The notes: generated from the letters alone by a model not told the origin. 64,000 nucleotides of DNA from an uncultured delta proteobacterium (GCA_963771175.1 CAVYSY010000011.1:1-64000), one strand, 5' to 3'. Numbered from the stretch's first letter, positions 4,633 to 33,201 are shown. Numbers and translations: made by a program.

Positions 4633-5436
4633 ATGCCCCCCACTCTCGACATCTCTTCCCTCCAACCCGCCACCACGCCTGCCGTGTTGCGCGAGGGCTC
4701 GCGCGGCCCCGAGGTCGCCGAGCTGCAACGCAGGTTGCTCGCCGCCGGCTTCGACCCTGGACTGGCCGACGGTGACTTCGGCCCGAGGACCGACACGGCC
4801 GTGAGGGCCTTCCAGAAGTCCCGGGGTCTCGTCGTGGATGGCATCGTCGGGCCTCGGACCTGGAGCGCGCTCGGCGCCCACGTCGAGGCACCTGGCGTTC
4901 GCACGGGGACGGGGCTCACCGAGAAGCAGCTCCGGGACATCATGCCCAGGTTGTCGGCCGCCCGTGCCGAGGAGTGCCTGCCCCACCTGGACGCGGCGAT
5001 GGTCGAGGCGGACATCGTCACCTCGCAGCGCCAGGCGGCCTTTCTCGCGCAGCTCGCCCACGAGAGCGGGGAACTGCGCTTCTTCGAGGAGCTCTCCTCC
5101 GGTGAGCAGTACGAGGGCCGGAAGGATCTGGGCAACACCGAGCCGGGGGATGGCCGACGCTACAAAGGCCGGGGCCCCATTCAGCTCACCGGCCGGGCCA
5201 ATTATCGCGCCGCCGGGCGTGCACTGGGCATCGACCTGGAGGGCAATCCCACGCGTGCCGGGGATGTCGACGTGGGCTTCCGCGTGGCGGCCTGGTACTG
5301 GACGAGCCGGGGCCTCAACGCGCTCGCGGACGCGGGGGACTTCCGGGAGATCACCCGCCGCATCAACGGGGGCTTCAACGGGCTCGCCGAGCGCGAGGCG
5401 TACTACCGGCGCGCGCTGGAGGTCCTCGCCCACTGA
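4633..5436 (+). CDS. Peptidoglycan-binding domain + GH19 (lysozyme/chitinase-like) protein
   Basis: N-terminal 'LREGSRGPEVAELQRRL...DGDFGPRT..AVRAFQ..GLVVDGIVGPRTW'; C-terminal 'AAFLAQLAHES', 'YKGRGPIQLTGRANY', 'INGG.NG'. Confidence 0.9.
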   Translation: MPPTLDISSLQPATTPAVLREGSRGPEVAELQRRLLAAGFDPGLADGDFGPRTDTAVRAFQKSRGLVVDGIVGPRTWSALGAHVEAPGVRTGTGLTEKQLRDIMPRLSAARAEECLPHLDAAMVEADIVTSQRQAAFLAQLAHESGELRFFEELSSGEQYEGRKDLGNTEPGDGRRYKGRGPIQLTGRANYRAAGRALGIDLEGNPTRAGDVDVGFRVAAWYWTSRGLNALADAGDFREITRRINGGFNGLAEREAYYRRALEVLAH

Positions 5437-5440
5437 GTGA

Positions 5441-6442
<1,002 letters not shown>

Positions 6443-6659
6443 GTGGGAAAGGGTTCGTCCGCCCAGCCGGGGGTGAAAGCGAGGGGGGCCGGACAAGGTC
6501 GACTCGCGGACGCTCGTGCGCGCGCGACGTCCGCCAGAGAGCAGGCGCGGCGTTCATCGGTGCACGGACGGGAGGGGAAGCAGCCGAGCGTGACTTGTTC
6601 GGTGGCATGCGGATGCATAGCCCGTGGAGACCAACTCAACAGTCGCTGGAGGCCGTGTG

Positions 6660-7637
6660 ATGCAAACAGGGTCGGGAGCGAGGATGAAGGCCGCGGTGCT
6701 CGCGGCTCCAAAGGGCGCGCGCGTGGAGAACGTGGCGAAGCCGGAGCCGCGGTCGGGGCAGCTGCGCGTGCGGCTCGAGGGCTGTGGCGTTTGCGGCTCG
6801 AACCTCCCCACCTGGGAGGGCCGCGAGTGGTTCAAGTACCCCATGGCCCCGGGTGCTCCCGGCCACGAGGGCTGGGGCGTGGTGGACGTCGTGGGCCCGG
6901 ACGTGAAGGGCTTCAAGGCGGGGGACCGGGTGGCCTTCCTCTCCGGCAACGCCTACGCCGAGTACGACGTGGTGAACCAGGACTCCGCGGTGGCGCTGCC
7001 CAGGGCGCTGGATGGGAAGCCCTTCCCGGGTGAGCCGCTCGGCTGTGCGATGAACATCTTCCGCCGCAGCGAGATTCTGCCGGGAGATGCGGTGGCCATC
7101 ATCGGCATCGGCTTCCTGGGAGCCCTCCTGACGAAGCTGGCCACGCAGGCGGGAGCGCGGGTGCTCGCCATCACCCGACGGCCGTGGGCGCTGGAGGTGG
7201 CACGGGGCATGGGCGCCGTCGAGTGCATCCCCATGGACGACCACCACCGCATCATCAACCGGGTGAAGGACCTCACGGGCGGCAAGTTCTGCGAGCGCGT
7301 CATCGAGGTGGTGGGCGAGCAGTGGCCGCTGGACCTCGCGGGCGAGCTCACGCGCGAGCGCGGGCGGCTGATGATCGCCGGCTACCACCAGGACGGCCCG
7401 CGGCAGGTGAACATGTGGCTGTGGAACTGGCGCGGCCTGGACGTCATCAACGCCCATGAGCGCGACCCCAAGGCCTACCTCGACGGCATCCGCATGGCGG
7501 TGGACGCGGTGGCCAGTGGGGTGCTGGACCCGACGCCGCTCTACACCCACTCGTACAAGCTGGATCAGCTCAACACCGCCTTCGAGATGATGAAGACGCG
7601 TCCCGATGGCTTTCTCAAGGCGCTCGTCACCCTATGA
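6660..7637 (+). CDS. Zinc-binding MDR dehydrogenase (sugar/polyol dehydrogenase-like)
   Basis: CGVCGS, GHEGWG, GIGFLG Rossmann motif. Confidence 0.85.
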   Translation: MQTGSGARMKAAVLAAPKGARVENVAKPEPRSGQLRVRLEGCGVCGSNLPTWEGREWFKYPMAPGAPGHEGWGVVDVVGPDVKGFKAGDRVAFLSGNAYAEYDVVNQDSAVALPRALDGKPFPGEPLGCAMNIFRRSEILPGDAVAIIGIGFLGALLTKLATQAGARVLAITRRPWALEVARGMGAVECIPMDDHHRIINRVKDLTGGKFCERVIEVVGEQWPLDLAGELTRERGRLMIAGYHQDGPRQVNMWLWNWRGLDVINAHERDPKAYLDGIRMAVDAVASGVLDPTPLYTHSYKLDQLNTAFEMMKTRPDGFLKALVTL

Positions 7638-13800: not shown

Positions 13801-14267
13801 CGGAGAAGTACCGCCGCTTCTCCTTCCAACCGGACGCGGAGTGGGAGCGCATGTATGAAACCATCCTCAAGAACCGGCCGGCGGGCAACGCCTTCGAGGA
13901 CGCCATCCTCCAGGCCCACAAGTACGAGCGCAACAGCGCGATGCTGATGCCGCCACCGGGCAGCGGCGCCCAGGGCTTCATTCCCGACGCGGTGAAGGGC
14001 AACCCGGCGGACCTGGTGTGGGGCCAGCCCTACCCCTTCGTCGAGGCCAAGGCTCGCAAGGAACTGTCCTTCTCCGGAAATCTCAAGGCCATGATTGAGT
14101 ACGTGGAGAAGTACGGTGGCCATCTCGAATTCTGGGTCCGCTCCGCCCGGCATCCCGATGGAGCAACACGTCTTTCAGGACCGCTCCTCCAACGCTTGGA
14201 TCGCTTGAAGAGATCTGGCAGGGCAAGCGTGAAGGCCGTACCCATGATGCACATCCTCACACCATGA
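10853..14267 (+). CDS. TraB/OmpA-like outer-membrane protein fused to a pre-toxin TG domain and a C-terminal PD-(D/E)xK nuclease-like toxin; one frameshift near 11525
   Basis: Signal peptide, beta-strand-rich region, TSP3 repeats (DADGDSV..ADRCP, DEDGDGVVDRRDACP), OmpA_C (VRFATG, LSRRRA), PT-TG-like (LLVGLTPGAGEVTDAHAAFSGHSLSGHRLTDTER), nuclease motifs GNAFE / IPDAV / FVEAK. Confidence 0.75.
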
Positions 14268-14297
14268 TTCACGCACTCAAAGCTCCAACCGCCCGCA

Positions 14298-15103
14298 ATG
14301 CCCATCAAGTATTTCGACACCCATATAAGTCTTCCTCCCGAACCACCTCACGGGAGAACACGTGAGAGAGTTCCTTGACCTCGTCCTTCGCAGGTATCGG
14401 TGGTTTGAAGCGAGACGCTATGGCATGCCGACCTGGACAAACCGATCGACCCGGATCGTCTCGACCTCAACCCACTGGTCGCCTATTTCGAGGAGCGCCA
14501 CTACCTGTGCGTCGCCGCCAAGACAGATAGGGACTTCATCTGGTTCTCGCCCGCTCCCGCTGACGCTCCGCCCTACGTAGGCGACAATCTCCTGGACGAC
14601 CTCCGCCAGTTCGGCGTCCAAAGCCTCCTGGCGTGCAGCCCATGCGCAGCAGGTGGCCGAGCTCATGCGCCTCGTCCAGTCTCCTCTGGCTCTGGCCGGG
14701 TTGGATACGGACCTCCACTCCAAGCAGCGGCGGCTCATTCCCAAGAGCATTCCCATGGAGGGAGGAAAGGACTTCACCTACTCGGAACAGGTAGTTCACC
14801 GTGCGCGACTACAGTGAAGGACTCCCGGGGCTCGTCTGGCGCAACTTCTACGGGCCGCCCTTCGTGCGCATGTTCGGCGAGCGACTCAATACGCTCCCTC
14901 CCGAATGCCGCCAGCCGCTCGGCGAGGACATCGTCCTCGTCCAGCCCTACAAGCTGCCCGCCGAGGCCGGCACCGAGGCGGGTATTGCTCGGGAGCGTGA
15001 GCTCATCTCCCTGCTCGGCCCCGAGTGCTTCTACGACCACGAGCGCCTCACCCTGCCCACCCGCCGCCCCGTACTGGACGCGCTCGGCCAGCCTCTTCAT
15101 TGA
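14298..15103 (+). CDS. Putative immunity protein (about 4 frameshifts)
   Basis: Joined frames: MPIKYFDTH../VREFLDLVLRRYRWFEARRYG/..YFEERHYLCVAAKTDRDFIWF../..AHAQQVAELMRLV../VRDYSEGLPGLVWRNFYGPPFVRMFG...; lies directly after the toxin tip. Confidence 0.6.
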
Positions 15104-15324
15104 TAAGTGTCCACTGGTGTGAAAAGGCACTGCCCTCCAGTGCGTGTACGTACAGGCATCCACTCCCCGATCAAAAGCACCCTGCCTAGCTTGGGCTTCC
15201 AGAGTTGCTGCTGGATTTCCCGACCACGCGGGACGGCCGGAGTTTCCGGGCACCACGGGCTTTCGTTGGCGGGAAGGCGGTGGACGGTGTTTGGCGAGAG
15301 ATACCTGCGCACGGCGGAGGGGCA

Positions 15325-16446
15325 ATGAAGGGCAAGCACATCCTCATCACGGGTGGGGCGGGGTTCATCGGCTCGCACCTGGCGGACCAACTGATTGAGC
15401 GAGGACACCGCGTCCGGGTGCTCGACTGTCTCCTGCCGCAGGTGCATGGCGAGGGCCAGCGCCGGCCGGACTACCTCCACCCGGATGTGGAGCTGTGGGT
15501 GGGCGACGTGCGCGACCCCGAGGCCGTCCGTCAGGCGTTGGAGGGGGTGGACGCCGTCTACCACTTCGCGGCGGCCGTCGGCGTGGGCCAGAGCATGTAT
15601 GAGATTGCCCACTACACGTCGGTGAACAACATGGGCACCGCGGTGCTGCTGGAGGCGCTGATGAAGCGCCCGGTGCAGCGGCTCGTCGTGGCCTCCAGCA
15701 TGAGCGTGTACGGCGAGGGCCTCTTCCGCACCTCGAGCGGGCAGCTCGTGCCGGGCACGGACCGCACCCGCGAGCAGCTCCAGTCGGGCCAGTGGGAGCT
15801 GCTGGACGCCAGGGGCAGTCCGCTCTACCCGGTGCCCACGCCCGAGGCGAAGCAGCCGGCGCTCTCCTCCGTGTACGCGCTCTCCAAGTACGACCAGGAG
15901 CGCCTGTGCCTCGTCTTCGGCAAGGCCTACAACATCCCCACGGTCGCGCTGCGCTTCTTCAACGTGTACGGCCCGCGCCAGGCGCTCTCCAACCCGTACA
16001 CCGGCGTGCTGGCCATCTTCGCCTCGCGCCTGCTCAACGACAAAGCGCCCCTCATCTTCGAGGACGGCTACCAGCAGCGCGATTTCGTCAGCGTGCATGA
16101 CATCGCGCGTGGCTGCCGGCTGGCCCTGGATGCGCCCGCGGCCGCCGGGGGCGTCTTCAACATCGGCAGCGGCCATCCCGTCACGGTGCGAGAGGTGGCG
16201 GCTCATGTGGCCGAGGTCATGGGCAAGCCGCACATCCGTCCCGAGGTGACCGGCAAGTACCGCGTGGGTGACGTGCGTCACTGCTTCGCGGACATCTCGC
16301 TGGCCCGCGCGGTGCTCGGCTACGAGCCCCAGGTCTCCTTCCACCAGGGTCTGGCCGAGCTGGCCGGGTGGCTCGAGGGGCAGGTGGCCACGGACCATGT
16401 CGACGAGGCGCGCGCGGAGCTGGAGCTCAGGGGGTTGACGGTATGA
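15325..16446 (+). CDS. NAD-dependent epimerase/dehydratase (dTDP-L-rhamnose 4-epimerase-like)
   Basis: TGGAGFIGSH, VGVGQSMY, SSMSVYG, YALSK, NVYGP. Confidence 0.9.
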   Translation: MKGKHILITGGAGFIGSHLADQLIERGHRVRVLDCLLPQVHGEGQRRPDYLHPDVELWVGDVRDPEAVRQALEGVDAVYHFAAAVGVGQSMYEIAHYTSVNNMGTAVLLEALMKRPVQRLVVASSMSVYGEGLFRTSSGQLVPGTDRTREQLQSGQWELLDARGSPLYPVPTPEAKQPALSSVYALSKYDQERLCLVFGKAYNIPTVALRFFNVYGPRQALSNPYTGVLAIFASRLLNDKAPLIFEDGYQQRDFVSVHDIARGCRLALDAPAAAGGVFNIGSGHPVTVREVAAHVAEVMGKPHIRPEVTGKYRVGDVRHCFADISLARAVLGYEPQVSFHQGLAELAGWLEGQVATDHVDEARAELELRGLTV

Positions 16447-19652: not shown

Positions 19653-19669
19653 GCGGAGACTTTTGAACG

Positions 19670-20809
19670 ATGCGCGTCGTCCTCTTCTGCCACTCGCTCC
19701 TGTCGGACTGGAACCACGGCAACGCCCATTTCCTGCGAGGCGTCGTCACCGAGCTCGCTGAACGGGGCGCGGACCTCCAGGTGTACGAGCCGCGAAACGC
19801 CTGGAGCCTGGAGAACCTCCTGGCCGAGCGCGGGGGAGAGGAGGTGCTGGAGGCGGTGAGGCTCGTCTACCCGCGCGTCCGGCCCCACCGCTACGCGCTG
19901 GAGTCGCTGGACCTGGGGGCCGTGCTGGACGGGGCGGACCTGGTCATCGTCCACGAGTGGAGCGAGCCGGAGTTGGTGCACCGCGTCGGTCAGGCGCGTG
20001 CGCGCGGCGGGCGCTTCAAGCTGCTCTTCCATGACACCCACCACCGCAGCGTCACCGCGCCGCACGAGATGGCCCGGTACGACCTGACGCACTACGACGG
20101 GGTGCTGGCCTTCGGCGACGTCATCCGCCGGCTGTACCTGGAGCGCGGCTGGGCGCGCCACGCCTGGACGTGGCACGAGGCCGCCGACGTGCGCGTCTTC
20201 CGCCCGGAGCCCGGGGCCCGGCTGGAGGAGGACCTCGTCTGGGTGGGCAACTGGGGTGACGACGAGCGCACCGCGGAGCTGCACGAGTTCCTGCTCGGCC
20301 CGGTGAAGCGGCTGGGGCTGAAGGCGCGGGTACACGGGGTGCGCTACCCGAACGAGGCGAAGGCGGCGCTGGCGGAGGCCGGCATCACCTACGGTGGGTG
20401 GCTGCCCAACCACGAGGCGCCGAGGGCCTTCGCCCGGGCGCTCATGACGGTGCACGTGCCCCGCCGGCCCTATGTCACCGCGCTGCCGGGCATCCCCACC
20501 ATCCGCCCCTTCGAGGCGCTCGCGTGTGGGATTCCCCTGGTGTGCTCGCCCTGGGAGGACGCCGAGCACCTGTTCTCCCCGGGCCTGGACTTCCTCGTGG
20601 CCAGGGATGGCGCGCAGATGGAGCGCCACCTCGCCGCGCTCCGGGAGGACGCGGGCCTGCGGCGGGCACTCGCCGAGCACGGGCGGCGGACGATTCTGGC
20701 GCGCCATACCTGCGCGCATCGGGTGGAGGAGCTCCTCGGCATCTGCCGGGAGCTGGGCGTCGAGACTGGCTCGCTCGAGCCGGTCGCACAGGAAAGGGTT
20801 ACCGCATGA
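19670..20809 (+). CDS. CgeB family glycosyltransferase-like protein 1
   Basis: SDWNHGNAHFLRG, HDTHHR, WHEAAD, RPFEALACG, HTCAHR. Confidence 0.85.
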   Translation: MRVVLFCHSLLSDWNHGNAHFLRGVVTELAERGADLQVYEPRNAWSLENLLAERGGEEVLEAVRLVYPRVRPHRYALESLDLGAVLDGADLVIVHEWSEPELVHRVGQARARGGRFKLLFHDTHHRSVTAPHEMARYDLTHYDGVLAFGDVIRRLYLERGWARHAWTWHEAADVRVFRPEPGARLEEDLVWVGNWGDDERTAELHEFLLGPVKRLGLKARVHGVRYPNEAKAALAEAGITYGGWLPNHEAPRAFARALMTVHVPRRPYVTALPGIPTIRPFEALACGIPLVCSPWEDAEHLFSPGLDFLVARDGAQMERHLAALREDAGLRRALAEHGRRTILARHTCAHRVEELLGICRELGVETGSLEPVAQERVTA

Positions 20810-21928
20810 GCAGCCACGGACTTCGGATCGCCTTCTTCGGCTCGAGCCTCGTCTCGGCCTACTGGAACGGGGCCGCTACCTACTATCGAGGCCTCATCCG
20901 CGCCCTCCATGCGCGCGGCCACCGCGTCACCTTCTATGAGCCGGACGCCTATGACCGGCAGAAACACCGGGACCTGCCCACGGACCCGGACTGGGCGCGC
21001 GTGGTGGTGTACTCGGCCGAGGGCACCGACGGACTGGACCGGTGCCTGGAGGACGCGCGCGGCGCCGACGTGGTGGTGAAGGCCAGCGGCGTGGGCGTCT
21101 TCGACGAGCTGCTGGAGGCCCGGGTGTTGGACCTGAAGTCCGGTCACACCCAGGTCGTCTTCTGGGACGTGGACGCGCCGGCCACCCTGGAGCGGATGGA
21201 GAAGAACCCGAACGACCCGTTCCGCGCGCTGGTGCCCCGCTACGACCGCGTCCTCACCTACGGCGGCGGCGACCCGGTGGTGCTCGCCTACAAGGACTTC
21301 GGGGCGCGCGAGTGCGTCCCCATCTACAACGCGCTGGACCCGGACACCCACCACCCGGTGGCGCCGAATCCCCGCTTCGACTGCGACCTGGCCTTCCTGG
21401 GCAACCGGCTGCCGGACCGGGAGCGGCGCGTGGAGTCCTTCTTCCTCCGGGCCGCGGAGCTGCTGCCGGAGAAGAGCTTCCTGCTGGGAGGCAGTGGCTG
21501 GGGGGACCGGGACCTGCCGCCCAACGTGAAGTACGTGGGCCACGTCTACACGCAGGACCACAACGCCCTCAACTGCACGGCGCGCTCGGTGCTCAACATC
21601 AGCCGCGACAGCATGGCGCGCTTCGGCTTCTCGCCGGCCACGCGCGTCTTCGAGGCCGCCGGCGCGGGCTCCTGCATCATCACCGACAAGTGGCAGGGCA
21701 TCGAGCTCTTCCTCGAGCCGGGCTCGCGAGTGCCTCGTGGCGGAGGACGGACTGGAGGTGGCCGAGGCGGTGCTGTGCCTCACGGACGAGGGGGTCCGGC
21801 AGCTCGGGCAGGCGGCGCGTCGGCGCGTGCTGGCCGAACACACGTACGCGCACCGCGCGGTGCAGGTGGAGCAGGCGCTGGGCTATTCGTCGGGCGTGGG
21901 GGCCTCCACGCAGGAGCAGGTGGCCTGA
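20806..21928 (+). CDS. CgeB family glycosyltransferase-like protein 2 (frameshift near 21725)
   Basis: SAYWNGAATYYRG, WDVDAP, RVFEAAGAG, HTYAHRA. Confidence 0.85.
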
Positions 21929-23035
21929 TGGCACCTCCTCGGATGGACATCGTCTTCCTGGGCCTCTCCATCACCTCCTCCTGGGGGAATGGCCACGCCA
22001 CCACCTACCGCGGGCTGGTGCGGGAGCTGGTGCGGCGGGGCCACCGGGTCCTCTTCCTCGAGCGCGACGTGCCCTGGTACGCGTCCAACCGGGACATGCC
22101 CCGGCCGCCCTACGGGCGTACGGAGCTGTACTCGAGCCTGGAGGACCTCGAGGCTCGCTTCACCCGAGATGTGCGCCTGGCGGACCTCGTGGTGGTGGGC
22201 TCGTACGTGCCCCAGGGCGTCGAGGTGGGCCGCTGGGTGCAGCAGACGGCCACGGGCATCACGGGCTTCTATGACATCGACACGCCGGTGACGCTCGCGA
22301 AGCTGGCGCGCCGGGACTACGAGTACCTGTCGCCCGAGCTCATCCCCGGCTACAGGCTCTACCTCTCCTTCACCGGCGGGCCGCTGCTGGACCGCATCGA
22401 GCGGGAGCTGGGCTCGCCCGAGGCGCTGCCCCTCTACTGCGGCGTGGACCCGGAGCTGTATCCGCCCCAGTCGATGGCGCCGCGCTGGGACCTGGGCTAC
22501 CTGGGGACGTACAGCCCGGATCGGCAGCCCGTGCTCGACACGCTGATGCTGGAGTCGGCGCGGCGCTGGAAGTCGGGACGCTTCGTGGTGGCGGGGCCGC
22601 AGTATCCGGGCTCGCTGGAGTGGCCGGCCAACGTGCTGCGGGTGGAGCACCTGCCGCCGCCGGAGCACCCGGACTTCTACAACGCGCAGCGTTTCACGCT
22701 GAACGTCACGCGCGCGGACATGGTGCGGGCGGGGTACTCGCCGAGCGTGCGCCTCTTCGAGGCCGCGGCCTGTGCCACCCCCATCATCAGCGACGTGTGG
22801 GCCGGGCTGGACACCTTCTTCACTCCCGGGGAGGAGATCCTCCTGTCGCGCTCGGCGGAGGAGACGCTGGCGTACCTCCGGGAGCTCTCCGATTCGGAGC
22901 GGCGCGCCCTGGGTGAGCGCGGCGAGGGCGCGTGTGCTGGCCGAGCACACCGCGGCCCACCGTGCGCAGACCCTGGAGGGCTACGCGCTCGCGGCGGCGG
23001 CCAGGTACCGACTTCAAGGCGGCGCGCGGACATGA
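21928..23035 (+). CDS. CgeB family glycosyltransferase-like protein 3 (frameshift near 22920)
   Basis: SSWGNGHATTYRG, YDIDTP, RLFEAAAC, HTAAHRA. Confidence 0.85.
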
Positions 23036-23231
23036 AGAGCGCGGTGGTGGGGACCTGACTGGCCGAATCGGTTCGACGTCGTCTCCAACCCCGAGTTGCC
23101 TGGGATGGTCGGTTGGCAGCGCCCGGGGAGCGAAGCGCGCTTCGCCGCATTCCCCTCATCGGCCGGTTCCGCCGAAGCGCACTTCGTCCCCTCGTCCTGA
23201 CTCCCAGAGGAAGAGAGGTCCTCGGAAGGGT

Positions 23232-23247
23232 TGGCACATGCGCTGCT
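23232..23247 (+). promoter_or_regulatory. sigma54 (-24/-12) promoter
   Basis: TGGCACATGCGCTGCT matches TGGCAC-N5-YTGCW with exact GG-N10-GC spacing; 58 bp upstream of ATG 23306 (RBS GAGGAG). Confidence 0.8.
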
Positions 23248-23305
23248 AGTGCCCTGCCCGGACCCGCGGCCGGGACCGGCCGGACCCATCACCGAGGAGC
23301 AGACC

Positions 23306-23938
23306 ATGCACGACGTGGATCGCACCTACCGGAGTTGGAGGGCGAGTCGTTCGAGTTCGAGTTCAACGCCGAGGGCGAGTGGGGCGAGGTCTTCAATGAG
23401 AACGAGCTGAACGAGCTCGCCTCGGAGCTGTTGGAGGTGCACGAACGACCAGGAGCTGGAGCAGTTCCTCGGCAACATCATCAAGAAGGTGGGCGGCGCG
23501 GTGGGCAAGTTCGTGAAGTCTCCCGTGGGAAGACGCTCGGCGGCGTGCTCAAGACGGCTGGCCAAGCAGGCGCTGCCGGTGGTGGGCGCGCGCTGGGCAA
23601 CCTGGTGCTGCCCGGCGTGGGCGGTGCCGTCGGCGGCAAGCTGGCCTCCATGGCGGGCAGCGCGCTGGGCCTCGAGCTGGAGGGCCTGAGCCAGGAGGAT
23701 CGCGAGTTCGAGGTGGCCAAGCAGGTCGTCCGGCTGTCCGCGGACGCGACCAGCACGGCGCTGACCTCGCCCGACGGCGCTCCGCCCGACAGGTGGCCGG
23801 CTCAGACGGCCGTCGACCAGGCCATGCAGAAGTATGCCCCCGGGCTTCTCTGCGCAGATGGGGCGCGCGGCGGGCACCGGTCGCCGCAGCGGACGCTGGG
23901 TGCGCAAGGGCAACCGGATCGTCCTCTACGGGATCTGA
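23306..23938 (+). CDS. Hypothetical protein A: acidic 'ELE' N-terminus, Gly/Lys-rich amphipathic middle, C-terminal SGRWVRKGNRIVLYGI (several frameshifts)
   Basis: Reconstruction MHDVDRTY..ELEGESFEFE...ELASELLEV.NDQELEQFLGNIIKKVGGAVGKFVKSPVGKTLGG...GLELEGLSQEDREFEVAKQVVRL...SGRWVRKGNRIVLYGI*. Confidence 0.75.
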
Positions 23939-23943
23939 CCACC

Positions 23944-25310
23944 ATGTCCGCTGGCTCCTTCGCCTCGTGGATGTTGTCGCAGGAGGCCCGCGCACTGCTC
24001 ACGCGGCTCGAGCGCATCAAGTCCTTCGCCATGTCGGAGACGATGGTGCCGGCCGCGACGCTCTCCGTCGAGGCGCAGGCGGCGGTCGAGGGCTACCTGC
24101 AGCAGGGGCGTCGTGAGCTGCGCGAGCAGATCCACCGTACATCTCCTGGGTGGAGGGACCGGAGGGCCAGTGGGCGCTCGCCCGCGCAGCGCAGCGGCGC
24201 TTCACCTTCCTGCGCCTGCGCTTCAACGTGGTGCTCGTCGCACTTCGACATCTTCAGCGAGGCCATGAGCCAGCGAAGCGAGGCCGACAACGGCGTCTGG
24301 CTCGCCGGGTTGGACGTGGTCGCCAAGGACGCGCTGGAGCTGCCCGGCTACTACGAGGTACCCCCCGTCATCTGCTACCTGGCCCGCGGACCCGGGGCGG
24401 CCATCCGTCGCGCGCGCACGCGGCTGCCCGGGCGGCGGGGAGAGCCCGGCGGCGCATCATCCGTGTCCCCCGCGAGCGGATGATCGGCAGCGCCATCGCC
24501 TCCTCGCTCATCCACGAGGTGGGCCACCAGGGCGCGGCGCTGCTGGACCTGGTGGCCTCGCTGCGCACGGCCCTGCGCGAGCGTGTCCCACGAAGGCACC
24601 GAGGACGCAGCAGGCCTGGCGCCTGTGGGAGCGGTGGATCTCCGAGATCATCGCGGACTTCTGGTCCGTGGCGCGCGTGGGCAGTCGACGTCCACGTTGG
24701 GGCTGATGGGGGTGGTGAGCCTGCCGCGGCCGTTCGTGTTCCGGTTGAACGTGGACGATCCGCACCCCATGCCCGTGGATCCGCGTGAAGCTGAGCAGCG
24801 CGTTGGGCCGGGCGCTGTACCCCCACCCGCAGTGGGCGCGGCTGTCGCGGTTGTGGGAGGAGCTCTACCCGGTCGAGGGGCTGTGAGGCGGCACCGCCGG
24901 GTGCTCGCCGCGCTGGAGGCGAGCCTGCCGCGGGTGGTGCGCTTCTGGTGGAGCACCGGCCCGCCGCGCTGCGCGGCCGCACGCTGGTGGAGGTGATGGA
25001 GACGCGGGAGCCGCCAGCCCGCGCGGCTCGCGCGAGCTGTTCGCGAGTACCGCTGCCCGGCGCTCGTCGCATCCGCGACGCCCCGCCCTCGCTGGCCTTC
25101 GCCGTGGTCGGGCCAGGGCCGCTCCGTACGGGACCCTCACGCCCGAGGAGGAGAGCGAGGCCCTGGCCGAGCTGCTGCAGCTACTGGGCGCTGCGCAGCA
25201 CGCTCGATGCGTCGGAGATCTGCGCCTCGCTCTCCAAGTCCCGGGCCTCGGCGGCGGCGCTCCGGGTCCCCGCGTTGCCACGGCATTCCGTCACCGAGAG
25301 TTGGAGGAAG
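23944..25310 (+). CDS. Hypothetical protein B, HExxH zinc-metallopeptidase-like (many frameshifts; 3' end approximate)
   Basis: SSLIHEVGHQ (24513-24527), downstream WISEIIADFW as possible third ligand, DDPHP; starts 5 bp after gene A. Confidence 0.7.
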
Positions 25311-25314
25311 GATC

Positions 25315-27240
25315 ATGGCTGGCGTCAACATCACGGCTTTACCCGAAACCATCAGCGAGGGAGGCATCGTCAAGCTGACCGCCACCCCCGCCAAGCTGGA
25401 CCATGCGGTCAAGCGGCGTGTCTTCACCTGGAAGGTGGAAGGCGGCACCGTCACGCCGACCTCCAAAGAGGGCGATTCCGCGCAGTGGGACACCACCGGG
25501 CTGGTCCCCAGCATGTACACGGTGTCCGTCAACCTGCAGGAGTTCGATGCGCACAACAAGAAGCTCCACGAGTTCGATGGCACGGGGGCCGTGGAGGTCA
25601 CCGCGCGCCCGGGGGTAGCGGCGGCGGCCGTGGCCATTCCGGCGGCCGTTTCGGAGGCCACCGTCAAGCAGATGGTGCGCGAGGCGATGGCTGACTTCCG
25701 GGAGTCCGCCGTGTCTCCCACCTTCCGTGCCGGGGCCATCCCCGTGACGCTGCGGCGCGCCAGCTCCATCCCCACGACCGACCAGATCCTCTGGATGGTC
25801 ATCCGCCAGTCCACCAACAACCTCTCGTTCAGGAGCTACGCCGATTTCATCGACGACGTTCCTGTGCACGGAGCACCGACACCTGCGCCACGCACCGCCC
25901 GCCCGGGGGAGACGGCGATCAAGGACGGTGCGGCCTCACGCATGGCCCTGCCCTTCCCGGGGGTGGATGCCTACCGCAGCTCAAGGCCGCCACCGAGGTC
26001 TTCGTCCTGGTGAACTGCGGCGTGCTGGTGGACTTCCTCGGCGACAAGGAGTTCTTCTCGAGAACGTCCTGGAGCAGATCGACACCGTGCAGGAGGAGGC
26101 CCGCACCGGCTTTCCCAGCAGGGATCCGATTCCGGGCGACAATCTGCCGACCACGCAGAGCTGTGGAACCTCTACCTGGAGAACGTGAACGGCAGCGTCG
26201 GATGCGGCCCTGCCCTACCTGGCCATCATCCGAGCCAAGCTCCCCGACGTGCCGATCATCGTGCCGCACCACCACCACCGAAGAGGAGCTGATCAACTGC
26301 GTCGGCATCCTCCGCGAGAAGCTCGGGCTACCCCTCTTCCTCGAGCTCATCTGGAACTACTGGCACGGAGGAGGGGATGCTGGTCCAGACCATGAACCAC
26401 ATCAGCCAGCGCTTCCAGAACATCGCGGGCACCGGCGACCGCGACCCGCTGGCCAACCTGGAGATCGATCCGCTGCGGCCGCTCAACAACCTGCTGTGGG
26501 GCTACATCCAGGACGAGCAGAACCGGCTGAGCGTCGATGCGCCGCGCCTCACGAGTACGACCACCAGTACGGCTTCGACGCTGCACGGCAAGGCGGTCAC
26601 CGGGCTGCGCACCGCGGACCGGCGCTCGCAAGTTCCTCGAGTCCTTCCACAACCTGCTGCTACCGCTGCGTGCAGTTCTTCCGGCAGGACGACGACACCA
26701 CGGTGGTGGCGGACGGCTTCCCGGTGCTCAACTGCCATCAAGGAGACGCACTACCTGCTGGCGCAGGGCGCCCACAACCAGTTCGGCGACCTGCCCTCCA
26801 CGGCGCGCCAGGAGATGCTGATGCAGCAGTGGCTGCTGTCGCGCCCGGAGATGCGCGAGTTCCTCGGCGGGCGGGTGATGGTGCCCTACCCGGAGCCGTG
26901 GATGGACCGGGTGGACGCGATGAAGTCGCTGCAGGGCTGGACGGACATCAGCGTGGTGCACTTCCACGACCTGGCGCGTCTTCGGCGAGCAGCTGCTGCT
27001 GTCGCGTGCGCTACGGCGCCTGGAGCGTCGCCGAACGACCCGGCCCAGGCCGCCAACTGGGCGCGCTACTGGAGGCCGGAGATCCAGGGCTACATCCACG
27101 CGTACCGCGCCGTCACCGGCGTGGACCTGACGGCGGACATCACCGACCGGCAGGCGCTGGCCGAGCGCTACGTGCCGCCCTCCGTCCACCTGCGCAACCG
27201 GTTGGCCGTGCAGCAGGAGGCGGTGGCACTGGGGACGCCG
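25315..27240 (+). CDS. Large hypothetical protein C with a possible N-terminal Ig-like segment (many frameshifts; stop not resolved)
   Basis: GGAGG RBS; FTWKVEGG...AQWDTTGL..YTVSV; later LELIWNYWH, NLEIDPLRPLNNLLWGYIQDEQ, EYDHQYG, GAHNQFGDLP, WMDRVDAMK, AANWARYWRPEIQGYIHAYRAVTGVDL. Confidence 0.7.
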
Positions 27241-27248
27241 GAGCCGCC

Positions 27249-28344
27249 GTGCTCGACTTCACCACCGCGCTCTACCTGGGTCTGCAGCACGCGAGCAGCG
27301 ACGCTCGCGCCGTGGGAGCAGCTCACCTCGGCGTCCCCGGCGGTCCTGCGGAGCCACCGGAGAGCGCCGCGGAGGCGCGCGCGCCGTGGCGCGACCTGGT
27401 GGGCTCGCGCGCGCGCTGCTCGCCCGGTCCACGCTGCACCTGTTCTGGGACGTGTTCGAGCGTGGGCGCGGGGGCGCGCCGTCTGTCCCTGCTTTGGGAT
27501 GAGGGCAGCTATCCGGTGGCGCGGTGGGGGATGGAGCGGGCAGTGGCGCGCGGCGTGCCCGCGCGGAGCTTTCCTCATCATCGCCGGCGGCGCTGCAGCG
27601 CCGGCTTGCGCGAGAGCCCCGCCGGGTCGCCGGCGCGCGGTGGTGGTCTCAGCGACGGCTTGGTGTCCGGGCTGCGGCCGCGCGGCGCCACTCGTGCGCT
27701 ACCTGGAGGTGCTGCGGGCCCACGGGGGCCTGCTCGTGCTGGATGACACCCAGGCCCTGGGGTGTTCGGCACGCCGCGGCCCGGGCAGCCCTACGGAGCC
27801 GGCGGGCGGCGGCTCGCTGCGGTAGTCCGGCATGGGCGATGGGCCGGACGTGCTGTGGTGCGGCTCGCTGGCCAAGGCGTTCGGCGTGCCGATGGCGGTG
27901 CTGGCCGGTAGCCCGAAGTGGTGGGCAGGTACGAGGCGCTCAGCGAGACGCGGGTGCACTGCAGCCCACCCTCGGTGGCGGACCTCCATGCCGCCGAGCA
28001 CGCGGTGGCGCTCAACCTCCGGGGGGGGACGTGCTCCGGAAGGGTTGGCGCGGCGGGTGCGGCCACTTCCGGGTGAGGTTGCGGCAGGCGGGGTTGAGCG
28101 CGATCGGCGGGCTCTTCCCGGTGCAGCGGCTCCAGTTGCCCGCGGACGTGGACCCGGGCGCGGTCCAGCGAGCGGTTGCAGCAGCCGCGGCATGCGCACC
28201 GTGCTGCAGCGCTGGCGCTGCGGCCCGGAGGTGTCGGTGAGCTTCATGCTCACCGCGCGGCACGCCGCGGCGGAGCTGGATGCAGGCCGTGGAGGCGCTG
28301 GTGGAGGCCGTCCACGGAAGACATCGAGGAGGGCACGTCGATGA
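27249..28344 (+). CDS. PLP-dependent aminotransferase class I/II-fold enzyme, BioF/AONS-like (many frameshifts)
   Basis: MLDFTTALYLGL, STLHLFWD, VVVSDG, LLVLDDTQALG, SLAKAFG (PLP lysine), HCSPPS. Confidence 0.7.
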
Positions 28345-29364
28345 GTGAGTGGACGAGTACGAGAGCGGAAGCTGGAGCCGAGAGACTGGCGGACGAAGAG
28401 GAGGTCGCGCTGGCCGCTCGGTCCTTCCGTCTTCCCCCGCGAGCCGGGCTCCCGCGTTGCGCGCCCCTTCTGAGTGCGGCGGGACCGGACGCGCGGCGGC
28501 GGGTGTCCCAGGGCGCACGGCCTGGCCGTGCGCGGTCCGGGCAGAGGGCCGTCCCGCTTCGCGCCAGCGCCCAGGTCGCGGAGGTGCGTGCGGAGGCCGC
28601 GGGCCGGCGATGGCCCGGGCTCGTCCCTGCTTCTCATGGACGGCCATCCGGCTACGCTGCCCGTGCCACGAGCCTCCTCCCGCCTCCGCCCGAGACCGCC
28701 CCGCCGAGCCCCCGGAGGACGTGGCGGCACAGACCCCGGAGGACGCAGCCGCCGAGCCGCCCGAGGAGCCGGCCCTCCGGCGGACAGCGCCGCTCCGGCC
28801 CGAGCGAGGCCGGGGAGCCGCGCCGAGACCATCAGGAGTTCGGCGGGGCGCGAAGCCGGGGACTCACCTGCCGCGCGGACTTGCCCTCCAGGACGTACGC
28901 AGATGGATCGCCACCCGTTCTCCGGGATGCCGGCCGGCAGACGGCCTCTACTGGTCGTGGACGCCCGAGGCCGGCGCTGCCCCTCTACGTGGGAGAGACG
29001 GACAACCTCGCGGGACGCTGGCGGGAGCGCCTGCTCGGCCGTGTACCAGGTGGGGCTGCCCGGAACGGGGACCTGCTCCCACGCCGCTCAAGGTCTGGTT
29101 CGGGACGATGCCCAACACCCGAACCGAGCGCAAGACGGCGGAGCATGCCCTCATCCGCACGCTCCTGCTCACCGGCGTCGTGCCCGCGGGCCACCTGCGC
29201 AACCGAGCCTCCTTCAGGCAGTTCCGCGTGAGGGCGACGTGATGGAGATCCGAACCTGCTGCCCCGGGAACGCGTGGGGCGTCCGGGCCGCCAAGGCTCC
29301 TGGCATCACCAAACGAGCGCTCTCGCTCGCCGACAAGGCGACCTACGAGCTGTTCAGGCGCTGA
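28341..29364 (+). CDS. Hypothetical protein E: acidic/low-complexity N-terminus plus GIY-YIG-like C-terminal domain (frameshifted)
   Basis: GAGGAGG RBS; pieces GLYWSW, PLYVGETDNLAGRW, KVWFG, KTAEHALIR, LRN. Confidence 0.5.
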
Positions 29365-29374
29365 CGAGGCGGAG

Positions 29375-30170
29375 ATGATCATCGACTGCCACTGCCACGC
29401 GGGCAAGGGCGACGGGCTCACCGGGCCCCTGGGACACGGCCGCCCCGCTGGAGGACTACCTGCGGCGCGCGGCCGCCGCCGGCATCACCCGCACGGTGCT
29501 GCTTTGCCGCCTTCCACTCGGACTACGCAGGCGGCGAACCGCCAGGTGGCGCGGCTCGTGGCGGCCGACCCGGAGCGCTTCTACGGCTTCGCGTGCGTGC
29601 ACGCCGCCGAGCGACCGCGGGCGCGTGTTCGCGCTGGTGCAGGAGGCGGTGCAGCGGCTAGGCTTCCGCGGCCTCAAGGTGCACCGCCACGAGGCGCGCA
29701 TCACCCGCGAGGTGTGCGAGGTGGCGCGCGCCTTCGCGCTGCCCGTGCTCTACGACGTGATGGGCGAGGTCTCGCAGCGTGGAGCTGCTCGCCACCGAGT
29801 ACCCGCACGTGGCCTTCATCATCCCGCACCTGGGCAGCTTCGCGGACGACTGGCGGGCGCAGCGCGCGCTGCTGGACCCGCTGTCGCGCCATGCCCAACG
29901 TCTACGCCGACACCGCCGGGAGTGCGCCGCTTCGACCTGCTGGAGGAGGCGGTGGAGCGGGCCGGAGCGCACAAGCTGCTCTTCGGCTCGGACGGCCCGT
30001 GGCTGCACCCGGGGGTGGAGCTGGCCAAGGTGCGCGCGCTGGAGCTGTCCCCGAAGGACGAGCAGCTCGGTGCTGGGCGGCAACCTGCTGCGGTTGATGG
30101 AGCGAGCGCCGGCCGAGGCCCGTGGGGCGCGGCCTCGCTGGCAGGGACCGGCCCGACGGCGGTCGGATGA
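29375..30170 (+). CDS. Amidohydrolase_2 family metallohydrolase (frameshifted)
   Basis: MIIDCHCHAG, GFRGLKVH, IIPHLGS, NVYADT, LLFGSDGPW, LGGNL. Confidence 0.8.
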
Positions 30171-30199
30171 GAGGAAGTGCGCGATCCCTGGACGCTCCC

Positions 30200-31607
30200 G
30201 ACGCCGAGCCCGGCGCCCGCGGAGCGCGGGCTCCTCGTCGCCGCTGGGCGCGGCGCAGCTGCAGCGCGCGATCGGTGACGCCCAGCCGCCGGGCGGCGCG
30301 CTGGAGGTTGCCCTGCTCCTCGGCGAGGGCCAGCCGGATCGCCGTGTCCGAGGCGATCCGGCCGATCTCCTTGAGCCCCACCCCGAGCGACAGCGCGCGC
30401 TGGATGGCCTGCGCGAACGGCGACGTCCTGCCAGGTCGCCCCGTAGCCCTGTCGCCGCGGAGAGCTGCGGGCAGCTCGTCGGGCGGGATGTCCCCCACGA
30501 GATGGGCCCGGTACCCACGTGCCGCTTGCAGATGCCGCCCGATGAGCTGGCGCAGCTCGCGGATGTTGCCCGGGTAGCTGCGCGCAGGAGGTACTCCCTC
30601 ACGTGGGCGATCCAGCTCGAGCGCGCATGTCGGGCCGCATCGTCGGAGGAAGTGGCGCGCCAGCGGGAGGATGTCCTCGGGGCGCTCGCGCAGGGGAGGC
30701 AGCCGGCACACCCAGCTCGTGATGCGGTGGAAGAGGTCGCGGCGGAAGTCTGCCGCGGGCGACCTCCTCGGCCAGCTCACGGTTGGTCGCGCAGACCAGC
30801 CGGAAGTCGGCGTGCTGCCAGGTGTTGCTGCCCACGCGCTTGTACAGGTGCGCTCCTGCACCACGCGCAGCAACTGCGCCTGCAGGGACAGCCGGCAGCT
30901 CGCCCACCTCGTCGAGGAAGAGCGTGCCGCCGTCCGCCAGCGCGAAGGCGCCGTCGCGCGCGTTCATCGCCCCCGTGAAGGCGCCTCGCTCGTGGCCGAA
31001 GAACTCGCTGCCGGACAGCTCTGGCACCACCGTGCGTGCAGTCCAGCGTCACGAACTCCCGCTTGCCCGCGCGCGCGTCCAGCTCGTGGACGAGCCGCGC
31101 CACCTCCTCCTTGCCGGTGCCGCTCTCGCCGAGCAGCAGCACCGAGGCGTCGGTGAAGGCGGCCATCTCCACCAGCTGCTGCAGCACCGGGAACCACGCG
31201 GGCGCCCGCCCACCAGGTGCTCCTGCACGCAGGGCGAATCGACGAGCGCGTCCACCGCGCAGCCAGCGCTCGAGCCGCACGGCGATCTCCTCCACCGGGT
31301 CGCTCGAGCCGCGCCCAGGTGAGCACGTCCGAGGCCCCGGCCCGCAGCAGACGCCAGCAGGCGCCGGCCCGGCCAGCGCGTGGCCCGTGGTGGCCACCAC
31401 CAGCACCCGTGTTGAGGCGCTCAGCCGGCAATCCCGCACGGCTTCCAGCGTGGTCACTCCCGCCTCATCGAAGACGAGCACCCCGAGGCCGGAGGGTGCT
31501 TCCTCGCCATGCACCATCGTCTCGATGCCCGCGCGTTGCAGGGCCTCCAGCACCGTCGAGCGGAGCTGGGTGGCTCCACTCCCCAGGAAACGGATCCAGG
31601 CCTTCAT
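30200..31607 (-). CDS. sigma54-dependent enhancer-binding transcriptional activator (frameshifted; 3' end approximate)
   Basis: [53 protein letters not shown], Fis-type [15 protein letters not shown]. Confidence 0.9.
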
Positions 31608-31979
31608 GTGGCACCAATCCGGTTTCCGGACAGAGGGGAGGGAAGAGGAGGAACCTCACCGTCTCGGCTTGCATGCAACGGCAATGGACGGACCTCCTGG
31701 TGGACGACTCAGAAGGCACCCCCGGCGGCGACGTTCTCGGGTGTTCATTCCCCCGCTCAGGCGTTCGATTCCTGAGCTGAGACCGGCCTGACCTCTCTCT
31801 CCCACCAGCCACCATCATCCCCAATCCACTCTCCACTCAAAAGATGTACATCCGCCGAATATCGGCTCGAACACAGAAGGCGTTTGACGAGTGGACAAGA
31901 GGGCCCGCGACGGCGGGCGGCAACGCCTCTGGCAGTAGCCGCCGCCGAAGCGGTTCTTGTCAGCCCCTTCCGACGGGGC

Positions 31980-33005
31980 TCACTGGCACGCGGCCACCAG
32001 CCGGCGCTCGGGCCGTGCCTCCCAGTGGCGCTGATGGAAGGCGTAGCCGACCACCAGCGGCATCGTCACCGTGGCCTCGCCGTAGACCATCTGCTCCGCG
32101 GTGGTGGCCACCTTTCCCCAACTGCTCGCCTCGCGCAGCGTGGAGCCGGAGAGTGCCCCATCGCGCTCATCCGCCACGGTGAGCTGCACGGCGTACTTGT
32201 GCATGGCCACCGGCTGGCCGACGAAATCGGCCGCCACCACCACGTCCTGGGCGAAGTTCTTCGGCACCCCGCCACCGACCATGAAGAGGCCCGAGTCCTG
32301 GAGGGCGAGCTGGCAGCGCGTCAGCTCCAGGAAGTCCCGCGCGCTGTCGATGGACAACTGGGGCCTTCCCGCCGCGTCCACTGGTGATGGACGAGCCCGA
32401 AGCCCGCCGAGCAGTCGCTGAAGGCCGGGCAGAAGATGGGGACGACCCGCCTCGTGCGCGGCGAGCACCACGCTGTCGCGCGTCTTGCCATGACGGGCGA
32501 GGTAGCGCCCCATCTCGCCGATGAACTCCCGGGACGAGTAGGGGCGGGTCTCCAGCTCGCTGGCGAGCCGGGCGATGGTGGCATCGCACTCGCGCAGCTC
32601 GTCCTCGTCGATGAAGGTGTCGTAGATGCGGTCGATGTGCAGCTCGCGCAGGGTGTTGTCGTCCGCGTGGGGGCTGCCCCGGTAATGGCGGAAGCCCAGG
32701 GCCTCGAAGAAGTCCTGGTCCACGATGAGCGCCCCGGTGGACACGATGGCGTCCACCATCCGGTGGCGGATCATGTCCACGACCACCTGCTTGAGGCCCG
32801 CGGAGAAGAGCGAGCCCGCCAGGCAGAGGATGATGCCGCAGTCCTTGTCCTCCAGCATGGCGTCGTAGAGGGTGGCCGCGCGGTGCAGGTTGCGAGCCTG
32901 GAAGGCCATGTGGCCCATGGCCCGCACGAGGGGGCGGACGTCATGGGCCTTGATGTCGATGTGCTCGATGGTGTCTTGGAGTAGCTCGGTCTTGAGCGGG
33001 GTCAT
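31980..33005 (-). CDS. Deoxyhypusine synthase-like protein (polyamine/homospermidine-type pathway); two compensating frameshifts near 32375-32445
   Basis: FQARNL, IVSTGA, IDRIYD, PIFCPAFSDCSAG (alternate frame), GGGVPKNF, DGALSG, EASSWGK, EAT. Confidence 0.85.
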   Translation of the reverse strand: MTPLKTELLQDTIEHIDIKAHDVRPLVRAMGHMAFQARNLHRAATLYDAMLEDKDCGIILCLAGSLFSAGLKQVVVDMIRHRMVDAIVSTGALIVDQDFFEALGFRHYRGSPHADDNTLRELHIDRIYDTFIDEDELRECDATIARLASELETRPYSSREFIGEMGRYLARHGKTRDSVVLAAHEAGRPHLLPGLQRLLGGLRARPSPVDAAGRPQLSIDSARDFLELTRCQLALQDSGLFMVGGGVPKNFAQDVVVAADFVGQPVAMHKYAVQLTVADERDGALSGSTLREASSWGKVATTAEQMVYGEATVTMPLVVGYAFHQRHWEARPERRLVAACQ

Positions 33006-33201
33006 GCTGTTTGCTTCCCATGCGACCGGTGGAACGTCCCGGGGGGCTTGGGCCGCGAACAAAAGCCACCCGGAGCGTCCTACGGCCCGGCAGGTGCGGG
33101 GCCGCCATTGGAACGCCGAGTGGCTGCAACGGCTCTCATCCTGACATGAAACGGGCGCATCGACAATCTGAAGTGAATCCCCGTCGAGCGCCCATCACCC
33201 C

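Follow-up and report, generated by a model that had tools for sequence, protein, structure and literature searches.

What does a sigma-54 promoter control when it stands in front of a row of genes that fit no known pathway? This question is raised by a locus in a 64-kb stretch of DNA from an uncultured delta proteobacterium (GCA_963771175.1 CAVYSY010000011.1:1-64000; G+C about 70%), which is called the window here. A preliminary description, made from the sequence alone, noted a sigma-54 promoter, six plus-strand genes (A to F) and an enhancer-binding protein on the opposite strand, and proposed that they form one module with its own activator. In at least ten phyla we found the block as a conserved and self-contained gene island, with A, B, C, D, F and the activator occurring together in one order, which supports the proposal of a single module. 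The claim that no characterised pathway has these genes also stands: no matching set was found in Pfam, NCBIfam, PADLOC or the literature searched. No published description of the gene set was found in the full-text literature, with subscription journals and supplements outside the scope. The available parts of PMC5979394, PMC5748707 and PMC12316311 do not mention the set, nor do the available parts of the main texts of studies on RpoN in Paraburkholderia phymatum mention the island, which their supplementary tables could list. The island is more general than the window alone shows, and its anatomy, conservation and switch are solid. Its function is proposed tentatively: it is possibly a tightly gated lytic or antagonistic effector module.

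Raw pieces of the window said little about these genes. Because of frameshifts, they matched only F, the activator and a deoxyhypusine synthase in Pfam and NCBIfam; the Pfam matches, on 40 stop-to-stop pieces, were Amidohydro_2, the opposite-strand sigma-54 activator and deoxyhypusine synthase. The raw pieces being uninformative, the analysis was therefore based on a clean ortholog, locus L002 from Corallococcus carmarthensis. Its DNA is about 80–85% identical to window positions 23126–31697 and its genes are unbroken, encoding proteins of 210 (A), 445 (B), 625 (C), 364 (D), 321 (E) and 278 (F) amino acids (aa) and an activator of about 450 aa. Relatives were reached through C. An unbroken 188-aa piece of C led to two full-length proteins of 638 and 631 aa, and a search with the last 169 aa of C gave 653 clusters (50% identity), 357 of them at E ≤ 1e-30. 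The matching clusters are mostly 550–750 aa long and 50–80% identical over the last-169-aa region. An alignment of 41 C sequences was scanned against one genome per species; 598 stretches matched and 565 were confirmed. The island is thus present in at least 565 species-level genomes of the scanned collection. The loci studied are the best 80 of the 565 confirmed stretches, picked by similarity to C, and co-occurrence was scored by tblastn with the L002 proteins. The order of A, B and C was read in 66 loci with at least 3 kb upstream, and the presence of D, F and the activator in 55 loci with at least 8.5 kb downstream.

A, B and C lie in the same order on one strand in all 66 loci, D directly follows C in 52 of 55, F lies downstream in 50 of 55, a convergent activator lies downstream in 52 of 55, and all six are found in 46 of 54; these figures are conditional on C because the loci were picked through it. 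Compared with L002, the proteins have median identities of 47% (A), 61% (B), 55% (C), 46% (D), 67% (F) and 55% (activator). The identity of B across phyla is 56–75%. The loci come from Myxococcota, Acidobacteriota, Pseudomonadota (many of them Oxalobacteraceae and Variovorax), Chloroflexota, Verrucomicrobiota, Nitrospirota, Deinococcota, Calditrichota, Methylomirabilota and one bin labelled Clostridia, and soil and freshwater bacteria are among the carriers. Synteny between the window and L002 stops at both edges of the block and the neighbouring genes vary by lineage, so the block behaves as an island. The preliminary description had called for a search of this kind and had counted a lack of co-occurrence against the module. 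No such lack was seen; A, B, C, D, F and the activator were found together across phyla. Its six-gene block was right for A, B, C, D and F, which are core, and wrong for E: of the 80 loci, L001 and L002 alone have homologs of it. E lies in a slot between D and F, 0–6 kb in size, that holds lineage-specific genes.

The island is also found on large replicons. A search of plasmid records with B gave five records, including an Ensifer adhaerens megaplasmid, Rhizobium sp. CCGE531/532 and Paraburkholderia phymatum, so that B-family genes occur on large plasmids and chromids of rhizobia. The Ensifer adhaerens megaplasmid (L081), the one plasmid record examined, has the full island layout. No match was found among 50,697 phage records. 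Recent horizontal transfer was considered, as nucleotide identity between Myxococcota and Betaproteobacteria reaches 70–73%, and was rejected, as the B tree mostly tracks phyla. This quick tree, in which a careful search was unfinished, needs ten label changes against a minimum of nine, and one Nitrospira sequence is placed within Pseudomonadota. A better fit than recent transfer is descent that was mostly vertical, under strong constraint and with patchy presence.

Does the broken state of the genes in the window mean that the island is decaying there? The heavy frameshifting noted in the preliminary description is real in the sequence as it stands: tblastn needs two to four frames per gene, the coding frame, followed by codon-position G+C, shifts every 100–300 nt downstream of the promoter, and no long open reading frame (ORF) remains there. 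The six plus-strand genes could be mapped after the promoter by global alignment to L002 followed by refinement by reading. Such an alignment had been advised, and it gave the coordinates used below. The indels are limited to about 20.8–31.9 kb, and the rest of the window is covered by intact ORFs with normal codon bias. In the alignment of 23100–31750, frame-breaking indels relative to L002 number 14 in A, 32 in B, 23 in F and 35 in the activator, about one per 40 nt in well-conserved genes; C and E, with 98 and 72, have counts inflated by divergent stretches. Insertions exceed deletions in the patch, and the single-base indels are mostly not in homopolymers. Mismatch fractions against L002 at codon positions 1, 2 and 3 are 0.084, 0.052 and 0.216 in B and 0.083, 0.069 and 0.185 in F. 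Genuine pseudogenisation was rejected, since this pattern still shows purifying selection despite about 2% indels, whereas a pseudogene with 2% indels would have lost it. The frameshifts are therefore probably sequencing or assembly errors in a local patch and not biology. The patch of about 11 kb (20800–31900) resembles sequence that was filled in from long reads left uncorrected. Owing to it, any annotation of the source genome will miss the genes of the island.

The sigma-54 switch is complete and conserved. The promoter, TGGCAC-N5-CTGCT at 23232–23247 (+), is the sole occurrence of the pattern TGG[CT]A[CT]-N5-[TC]TGC[ATC] on both strands of the window. It had been called exact. GG at −24 and GC at −12 are indeed present, but the −12 half reads CTGC where the consensus is TTGC, so the match is close and not exact. 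Correctly oriented matches to a strict promoter pattern, 600–2300 nt upstream of B, were found in 24 of 66 loci, against 0.94 expected (P = 1.6e-25). Upstream of the promoter are two CGAA-N6-TTCG palindromes, the only ones in the window, which are candidate activator sites: site 1 at 23131–23144 and site 2 at 23173–23186. They are 42 bp apart and precede the −24 element by about 100 and 58 bp, respectively. Of 26 loci having a promoter match, 25 have the palindrome (45 matches in 4,420 nt versus 0.73 expected; P = 1.9e-63). It is usually paired, the two copies lying 41–42 bp apart and about 100 and 58 bp ahead of the −24 element, and the paired spacing recurs in Myxococcota, Pseudomonadota and Calditrichia. 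The Ensifer adhaerens megaplasmid has palindromes and promoter in the same arrangement.

The opposite-strand enhancer-binding protein was correctly recognised; it is encoded at 30234–31607 (−), convergent to A–F, with GAFTGA at 30968–30985. Pieces from the window match Sigma54_activat (5.9e-24), AAA_lid_14 and the Fis-type helix-turn-helix (HTH) domain HTH_8. Its AAA+/HTH part scores best against RtcR/PspF-type models, including those of PADLOC, and the N-terminal ~130 aa match no family in Pfam and only chance-level hits in a search of PDB sequences; this part may be a degenerate receiver domain. In Chloroflexaceae, rpoN is divergent from and adjoins gene A (L018, 4335–5864, −, by Pfam), so that the island brings its own sigma factor there; a gene of the same family has the rpoN position in L036, L042 and L060, as judged by clustering. 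By sequence, the locus has a properly spaced GG/GC promoter, an adjacent GAFTGA AAA+ activator with an HTH and upstream palindromes, as sigma-54 operons do. Most likely, the activator switches on the sigma-54 promoter via the two CGAA-N6-TTCG sites; its binding to the palindromes and its driving of the promoter are what their positional conservation points to. The promoter would drive one to three A proteins, B, C, D, a lineage-variable cargo (here E) and last F. In the effector module that we tentatively propose, it would hold dangerous products fully off until the activator fires.

What do the core genes encode? Gene B (23944–25298, +) had been described as a metallopeptidase-like protein with HExxH, and the motif is there (HEVGHQ, 24513–24530). 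The protein has 445 aa and a mean column identity of 68% in 31 sequences, with H188, E189, H192 and E231 invariant in 31/31. The model of B is mostly helical (predicted local distance difference test, pLDDT, 84.8; predicted template-modelling score 0.83). HExxH lies in helix 179–198 and E231 in helix 219–242, and in this model E231 is probably the third zinc ligand. No fold match for the model was found in PDB (Foldseek best E 0.21); the B profile met only a chance-level match among PDB sequences (a DUF4200 protein, E 0.3), and B has no match in Pfam or NCBIfam and no PADLOC defence model. At least 5,410 clusters hold B homologs. Among the best 120 listed, no Pfam domain is recorded, the NCBI/JGI names are all 'hypothetical protein', and the two UniRef labels are 'HEXXH motif-containing protein' and 'Uncharacterized protein'. 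B is a putative zincin-like metallopeptidase of a new family. In the effector module, B, as the sole peptidase-like core protein, would recognise or remove the leader of A and cargo described below.

Gene C (25315–27228, +) had been given as a protein of about 640 aa without a recognised family. It has about 630 aa, and no family was found in Pfam, NCBIfam, PADLOC or PDB sequences; a profile search against PDB sequences gave nothing. The model (pLDDT 81.8) has an N-terminal beta-sandwich (1–97), a disordered linker and an all-alpha core from about residue 158. The structural neighbours of the sandwich in PDB and a viral set (Foldseek) are immunoglobulin (Ig)-like domains of phage capsids and tails (decoration). 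This Ig-like domain varies between lineages, with few matches to PKD or CarboxypepD_reg. The core has no fold match in PDB or the viral set, where only the Ig-like domain found any. Look-alikes of A and C in the ESM Atlas are unnamed clusters or of PKD type only, the latter due to the N-terminal domain of C. C has no signal peptide. Its core is very conserved, with the invariant polar residues E357, E418, D470, H482, H490, E503, E530 and E561. A diiron site was considered and rejected, as a single conserved ExxH (E418..H421) survives. Profile and structure prediction on A to C, which had been recommended, thus gave no known family and, for the models of B and C, no fold match apart from the Ig-like domain. 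By these searches, A, B and C appear as three core families without known relatives. In the effector module, an Ig-like domain on the signal-less C suggests action outside the cell after release.

D and F were assigned to enzyme types correctly. Gene D (27232–28348, +), described as BioF-like, matches E. coli BioF (1bs0) by profile at E 1.3e-34. K208 and D165/D166 of D are invariant and align to the lysine that binds pyridoxal phosphate (PLP) and the aspartate of BioF. An invariant Gln takes the place of BioF His207, and Tyr aligns to what we take to be His133 of BioF. D scores 17–61 bits against the NCBIfam equivalogs, whose cut-offs are 338–670 (61 against 426 for bioF). With scores far under all NCBIfam cut-offs, D is not equivalent to BioF, Kbl, SPT or CqsA, and its sequence marks it as a divergent alpha-oxoamine-synthase (BioF/Kbl) type PLP enzyme of fold-type I. 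Gene F (29375–30223, +), called an amidohydrolase, matches Amidohydro_2 above the cut-off of 26.4 bits, at 78.1 bits (E 1.3e-21) in L002 and 38 bits (2.1e-09) on a window piece; by-eye reading of L002 gave HxH ... H ... H ... D as its metal ligands. C, D and F are probably enzymes or obligatory partners.

Such metabolic enzyme types, D and F, raise the question of whether the island feeds the cell. Sigma-54 activators often control amino-acid catabolism, and an M20 peptidase is encoded just before F in seven loci. Wall material or peptides might then be degraded by the hydrolases of the slot for food and passed on to the M20 peptidase, F and D. The island, however, has neither a transporter nor signal peptides, and this scheme leaves A, the nuclease-like cargo and the common leader motif unexplained. 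We regard it as very unlikely.

Gene A (23306–23938, +) had been noted for an acidic leader and Gly-rich sequence, and both features, an acidic N-terminus and a glycine-rich cationic middle, were recovered in L002 and in the family alignment. The window copy carries at least 14 frameshifting indels relative to L002, with GRWVRKG at 23891–23911. The family starts with the invariant M-H-D-x-D-R-T, followed by an acidic stretch rich in F-E-F and variable in length. The other family features are a motif that is conserved and helix-like (E-L-A-x-E-L-L-x-V ... E-L-D-x-F-L-G), a cationic middle of which Gly makes up 24%, a conserved E-D-R-E-F-E ... V-R-L-A segment and, at the very end, a basic tail, G-R-W-x-R-x-G-x-x-I-x-L, with G..W.R.G invariant. 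The net charges of the four parts in L002 are −16 (1–55), +6 (56–125), −2 and +7 (171–210). No family was found for A in Pfam, NCBIfam, PADLOC or the named clusters of the ESM Atlas. The glycine-rich part has weak PHROG matches to tape-measure proteins and to large or long endolysin families (E 2.5e-4 to 5.5e-3). Together, 66 loci hold 109 ORFs that end in the GRW tail: 38 loci have a single copy, 13 have two and 15 have three. One type of A paralog lies upstream of the main copy, and another, beginning with M-H ... C-x-C-x-x-C, is encoded between D and F (e.g., L027 13485–14153, L069 13552–14265 and L055 13998–14687). Some slot proteins (L053, L026 and L030) also carry C-x-C-x-x-C close to their N-terminal end; it may be a metal-binding or recognition element. 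In L026, a single frame of 1,015 aa (4362–7409) has three A-like units and an Ala/Gly-rich repeat region and begins just after a sigma-54 promoter at 4262. This may be one protein in which several A units are fused, or else a series of genes with no stop between them.

Several A paralogs per locus, with an invariant N-terminus and C-terminal tail, next to four putative enzymes that include a peptidase-like protein and a PLP enzyme, could also belong to a maturation pathway. A would then be a precursor or scaffold with a leader helix, tailored by B, C, D and F, and the slot would be accessory; the many invariant polar residues in C would fit. However, A is about 210 aa long and conserved throughout, without the hypervariable core, and no enzyme or recognition family of ribosomally synthesised and post-translationally modified peptides was found in Pfam or NCBIfam. 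The acidic motif common to wall hydrolases and A would also be left without explanation, and we hold this pathway to be improbable. In the effector module, A and the cargo would instead be made in the cytoplasm as masked pro-forms. The acidic leader (F-E-x-x-P-F or FEFE type) would neutralise the next cationic part, which is the glycine-rich amphipathic segment in A and an Arg/Pro-rich linker in the cargo. After unmasking, glycine-rich A would perturb membranes like glycine-zipper toxins or phage tape-measure segments. A predicted complex of B and A scored 0.01 and 0.00 against a mark of 0.32 in runs without controls, which counts neither for nor against a contact between the two.

The slot between D and F varies in content. 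In the window it holds gene E (28341–29368, +), whose product has an acidic N-terminus that an Arg/Pro-rich linker joins to a weakly GIY-YIG-like C-terminal domain. The likeness to GIY-YIG claimed before is there, as a G-L-Y ... Y-V-G-E-T stretch in E of L002 and of the window, but it is weak, and the Pfam match (14.8 bits, E 0.035) is below the cut-off of 22.6. E has two matches in a large protein set, and the confinement of its homologs to L001 and L002 makes it a local occupant of the cargo slot. It is not a peptidoglycan hydrolase. In a Pfam scan of 32 slot proteins, 14 have peptidoglycan-related domains, two are M20 peptidases and ten have no match; single proteins match GIY-YIG (4.9e-4), HNH (7.1e-4), a beta-lactamase-like domain (weakly), a nitroreductase, an acyltransferase (on the opposite strand) and a transposase. 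The 14 peptidoglycan-related proteins, whose domains overlap, include nine with PG_binding_1, three with OmpA-like, two with VanY and two with DUF2272/CHAP domains, and single cases of M23, of Amidase_2 with trypsin, of an Rv2525c-like glycosidase and of Extensin-like_C. A slot protein matches a phage endonuclease family in PHROG (1.3e-4), and weak nuclease matches occur independently in two slot families besides E. The transposase (DDE_5) lies inside the cargo slot of L030, from Trueperaceae, at 14208–15647 and hints at a route of slot turnover.

Although they are diverse, many slot proteins start with an acidic F-E-x-x-P-F followed by an Arg/Pro-rich stretch, and the acidic N-terminal motif is common to slot proteins and A proteins. 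Acidic N-termini were counted in 21 of 66 slot proteins versus 17 of 469 flank proteins of the same loci (Fisher 2e-11) and Arg/Pro-rich windows in 20 of 66 versus 7 of 469; these counts are lower bounds because the start codons are uncertain for several. By a crude test, none of the 66 slot proteins has a signal-peptide-like N-terminus, versus 84 of 469 in the flanks. Diverse enzymatic domains are thus seen together with one acidic motif, whose role in trafficking or toxicity is putative. Such an arrangement might also belong to an undescribed route of export or packaging, in which B and C, two new folds, together with A would recognise F-E-x-x-P-F and package folded wall hydrolases and nucleases or carry them from the cytoplasm, perhaps into other cells, using neither Sec nor Tat nor another known secretion machine. 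That unrelated cargo carries one N-terminal motif and no detected signal peptide agrees with this, as do the extreme conservation of B and C over their whole length and an Ig-like domain of C like those on phage particles. Still, the core encodes no ATPase, membrane protein or pore, and B and C are predicted to be soluble helical proteins. This route is unlikely in our judgement, and it overlaps with the effector reading.

Is the target of the cargo another cell, or the producer itself? The island could be a self-directed programme that remodels or destroys the envelope of the producer, with A acting like a holin, in lysis, abortive infection, entry into or exit from dormancy, or the freeing of public goods. 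Holin-dependent endolysins are typically wall hydrolases that lack a signal peptide, none of the 66 slot proteins looks signal-bearing by the crude test, and the peptidoglycan-binding domains of the cargo match phage endolysin families (E 4e-8). No immunity genes are visible, the sigma-54 gating is tight, and the AAA+/HTH part of the activator resembles RtcR/PspF-type models in PADLOC. On the other hand, the diversity and turnover of the cargo and its nuclease-like members resemble an arms race and not housekeeping; A has no transmembrane helices; among the core proteins, PADLOC matches only the activator, through AAA+/HTH, and no defence model is matched; and the Ig-like domain of C points outside the cell. 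We consider such a programme rather unlikely.

We return to the effector module. Three of its features together suggest masked pro-forms that are unmasked on demand: the tight sigma-54 gating, the succession of an acidic and a basic part, and a core with only one peptidase-like protein. The types of cargo suggest an attack on envelopes and nucleic acids, and its diversity suggests conflict with other cells. The cargo would attack cell walls or nucleic acids through its peptidoglycan-binding, VanY, CHAP, M23, amidase, glycosidase-like and GIY-YIG-like or HNH-like members. As signal peptides are missing and no transporter is encoded, release would take place through A-mediated permeabilisation or lysis of the producer. 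The preliminary description had suggested that the block might comprise a precursor or cargo protein, a processing protease, a structural or scaffold protein and tailoring enzymes, and had offered antagonism, protein export or packaging and peptide modification as possible functions; antagonism or export appear to be the more likely branches because of the common acidic N-terminal motif and the cell-wall- and nuclease-like cargo. Several points weigh against the effector module. No recurrent small partner genes, as expected of immunity genes, were seen in the slot gene maps among ORFs of at least 70 aa, and a missing immunity gene is unusual for antagonistic toxins. None of 31 A sequences reaches the Kyte-Doolittle value of 1.6 over 19 residues that marks a transmembrane-grade segment, and A is conserved over its full length with 47% mean column identity, unlike bacteriocins. 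No zincin was matched in PDB, so that protease activity of B is predicted from the motif. The GIY-YIG and HNH matches of slot proteins are below curated cut-offs, and the conserved putative enzymes C, D and F have no role in this scheme. The gene calls at the loci are crude, with some start codons wrong and ORFs below 70 aa not called, and the loci were selected through C, as stated above.

The genes around the block are not part of it. Upstream of the promoter in the window are three tandem paralogs (19667–23058, +) that are, by eye only, CgeB-type glycosyltransferase-like; the first (19667–20806) is intact and the other two are broken by the same error patch. These genes do not belong to the island in other genomes. 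Directly past the activator is an intact deoxyhypusine synthase-like gene (31983–33194, −; Pfam DS, E 1e-80), which is not kept beside the island elsewhere. In Corallococcus carmarthensis only, and neither in the window nor in the other loci, an M90 (MtfA-like) metallopeptidase gene lies just upstream of the island (L002 6986–7729).

Three core proteins lack a family, and the two that were modelled, B and the core of C, have no structural relative, a combination that is rare for genes so conserved. The switch is complete and conserved, with sites, promoter, activator and sometimes rpoN, and the system is therefore directly testable: the island is expected to be induced by a constitutive activator in hosts that can be cultured, such as Janthinobacterium, Variovorax, Massilia, Corallococcus and Ensifer. 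If the island indeed deploys swappable cargo that attacks walls or DNA under a common address tag, it would be a new bacterial weapon or lysis programme and a source of new lytic enzymes. If B, C and A instead form a route of their own, which we doubt, the island would amount to a protein-delivery system of a new kind, spread over at least ten phyla and under its own sigma-54 circuit.

How does the island compare with known systems? The psp/PspF and rtc/RtcR systems have a GAFTGA AAA+ activator adjoining its operon, tandem palindromes and a −24/−12 promoter, as the island does, whereas the N-domain of the island activator is neither CARF nor any known domain, and no psp- or rtc-like genes are present. 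D is like BioF, Kbl, SPT and CqsA in its full-length alignment to BioF and in keeping the PLP lysine and the aspartate. It differs in lacking the first ~40 residues of BioF, in the change of His207 to Gln and in scoring below every equivalog cut-off. A resembles antimicrobial-peptide precursors and glycine-zipper toxins in its acidic leader followed by a cationic, Gly-rich amphipathic segment, but it has 210 aa, an extra conserved C-terminal domain and tail, high conservation between phyla, and no Gly-zipper match in Pfam. Tde1 and CdzC/D are membrane-active toxins with glycine zippers. A precedent for a glycine zipper that moves a toxin across a membrane is reported in PMC10240207. Like colicins, pyocins and holin-endolysin cassettes, the island has lytic enzymes without signal peptides (14 of 32 slot proteins are peptidoglycan-related and, by the crude test, none of 66 is signal-like), a tightly repressed promoter and endolysin-like peptidoglycan binding. 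Unlike them, it has no transmembrane holin and no immunity or lysis gene, no match in the phage records, and sigma-54 control instead of SOS. Polymorphic toxin and effector islands, such as those of the type VI secretion system with MIX and the type IV secretion system with X-Tfe, differ in that the island has no known secretion apparatus (no secretion component was found among its conserved neighbours) and no adjacent immunity genes, and its putative recognition element is a new acidic motif. What the island has in common with them is its design, in which variable enzyme domains are placed on a short, common and putative recognition element in a hot-spot next to conserved genes.

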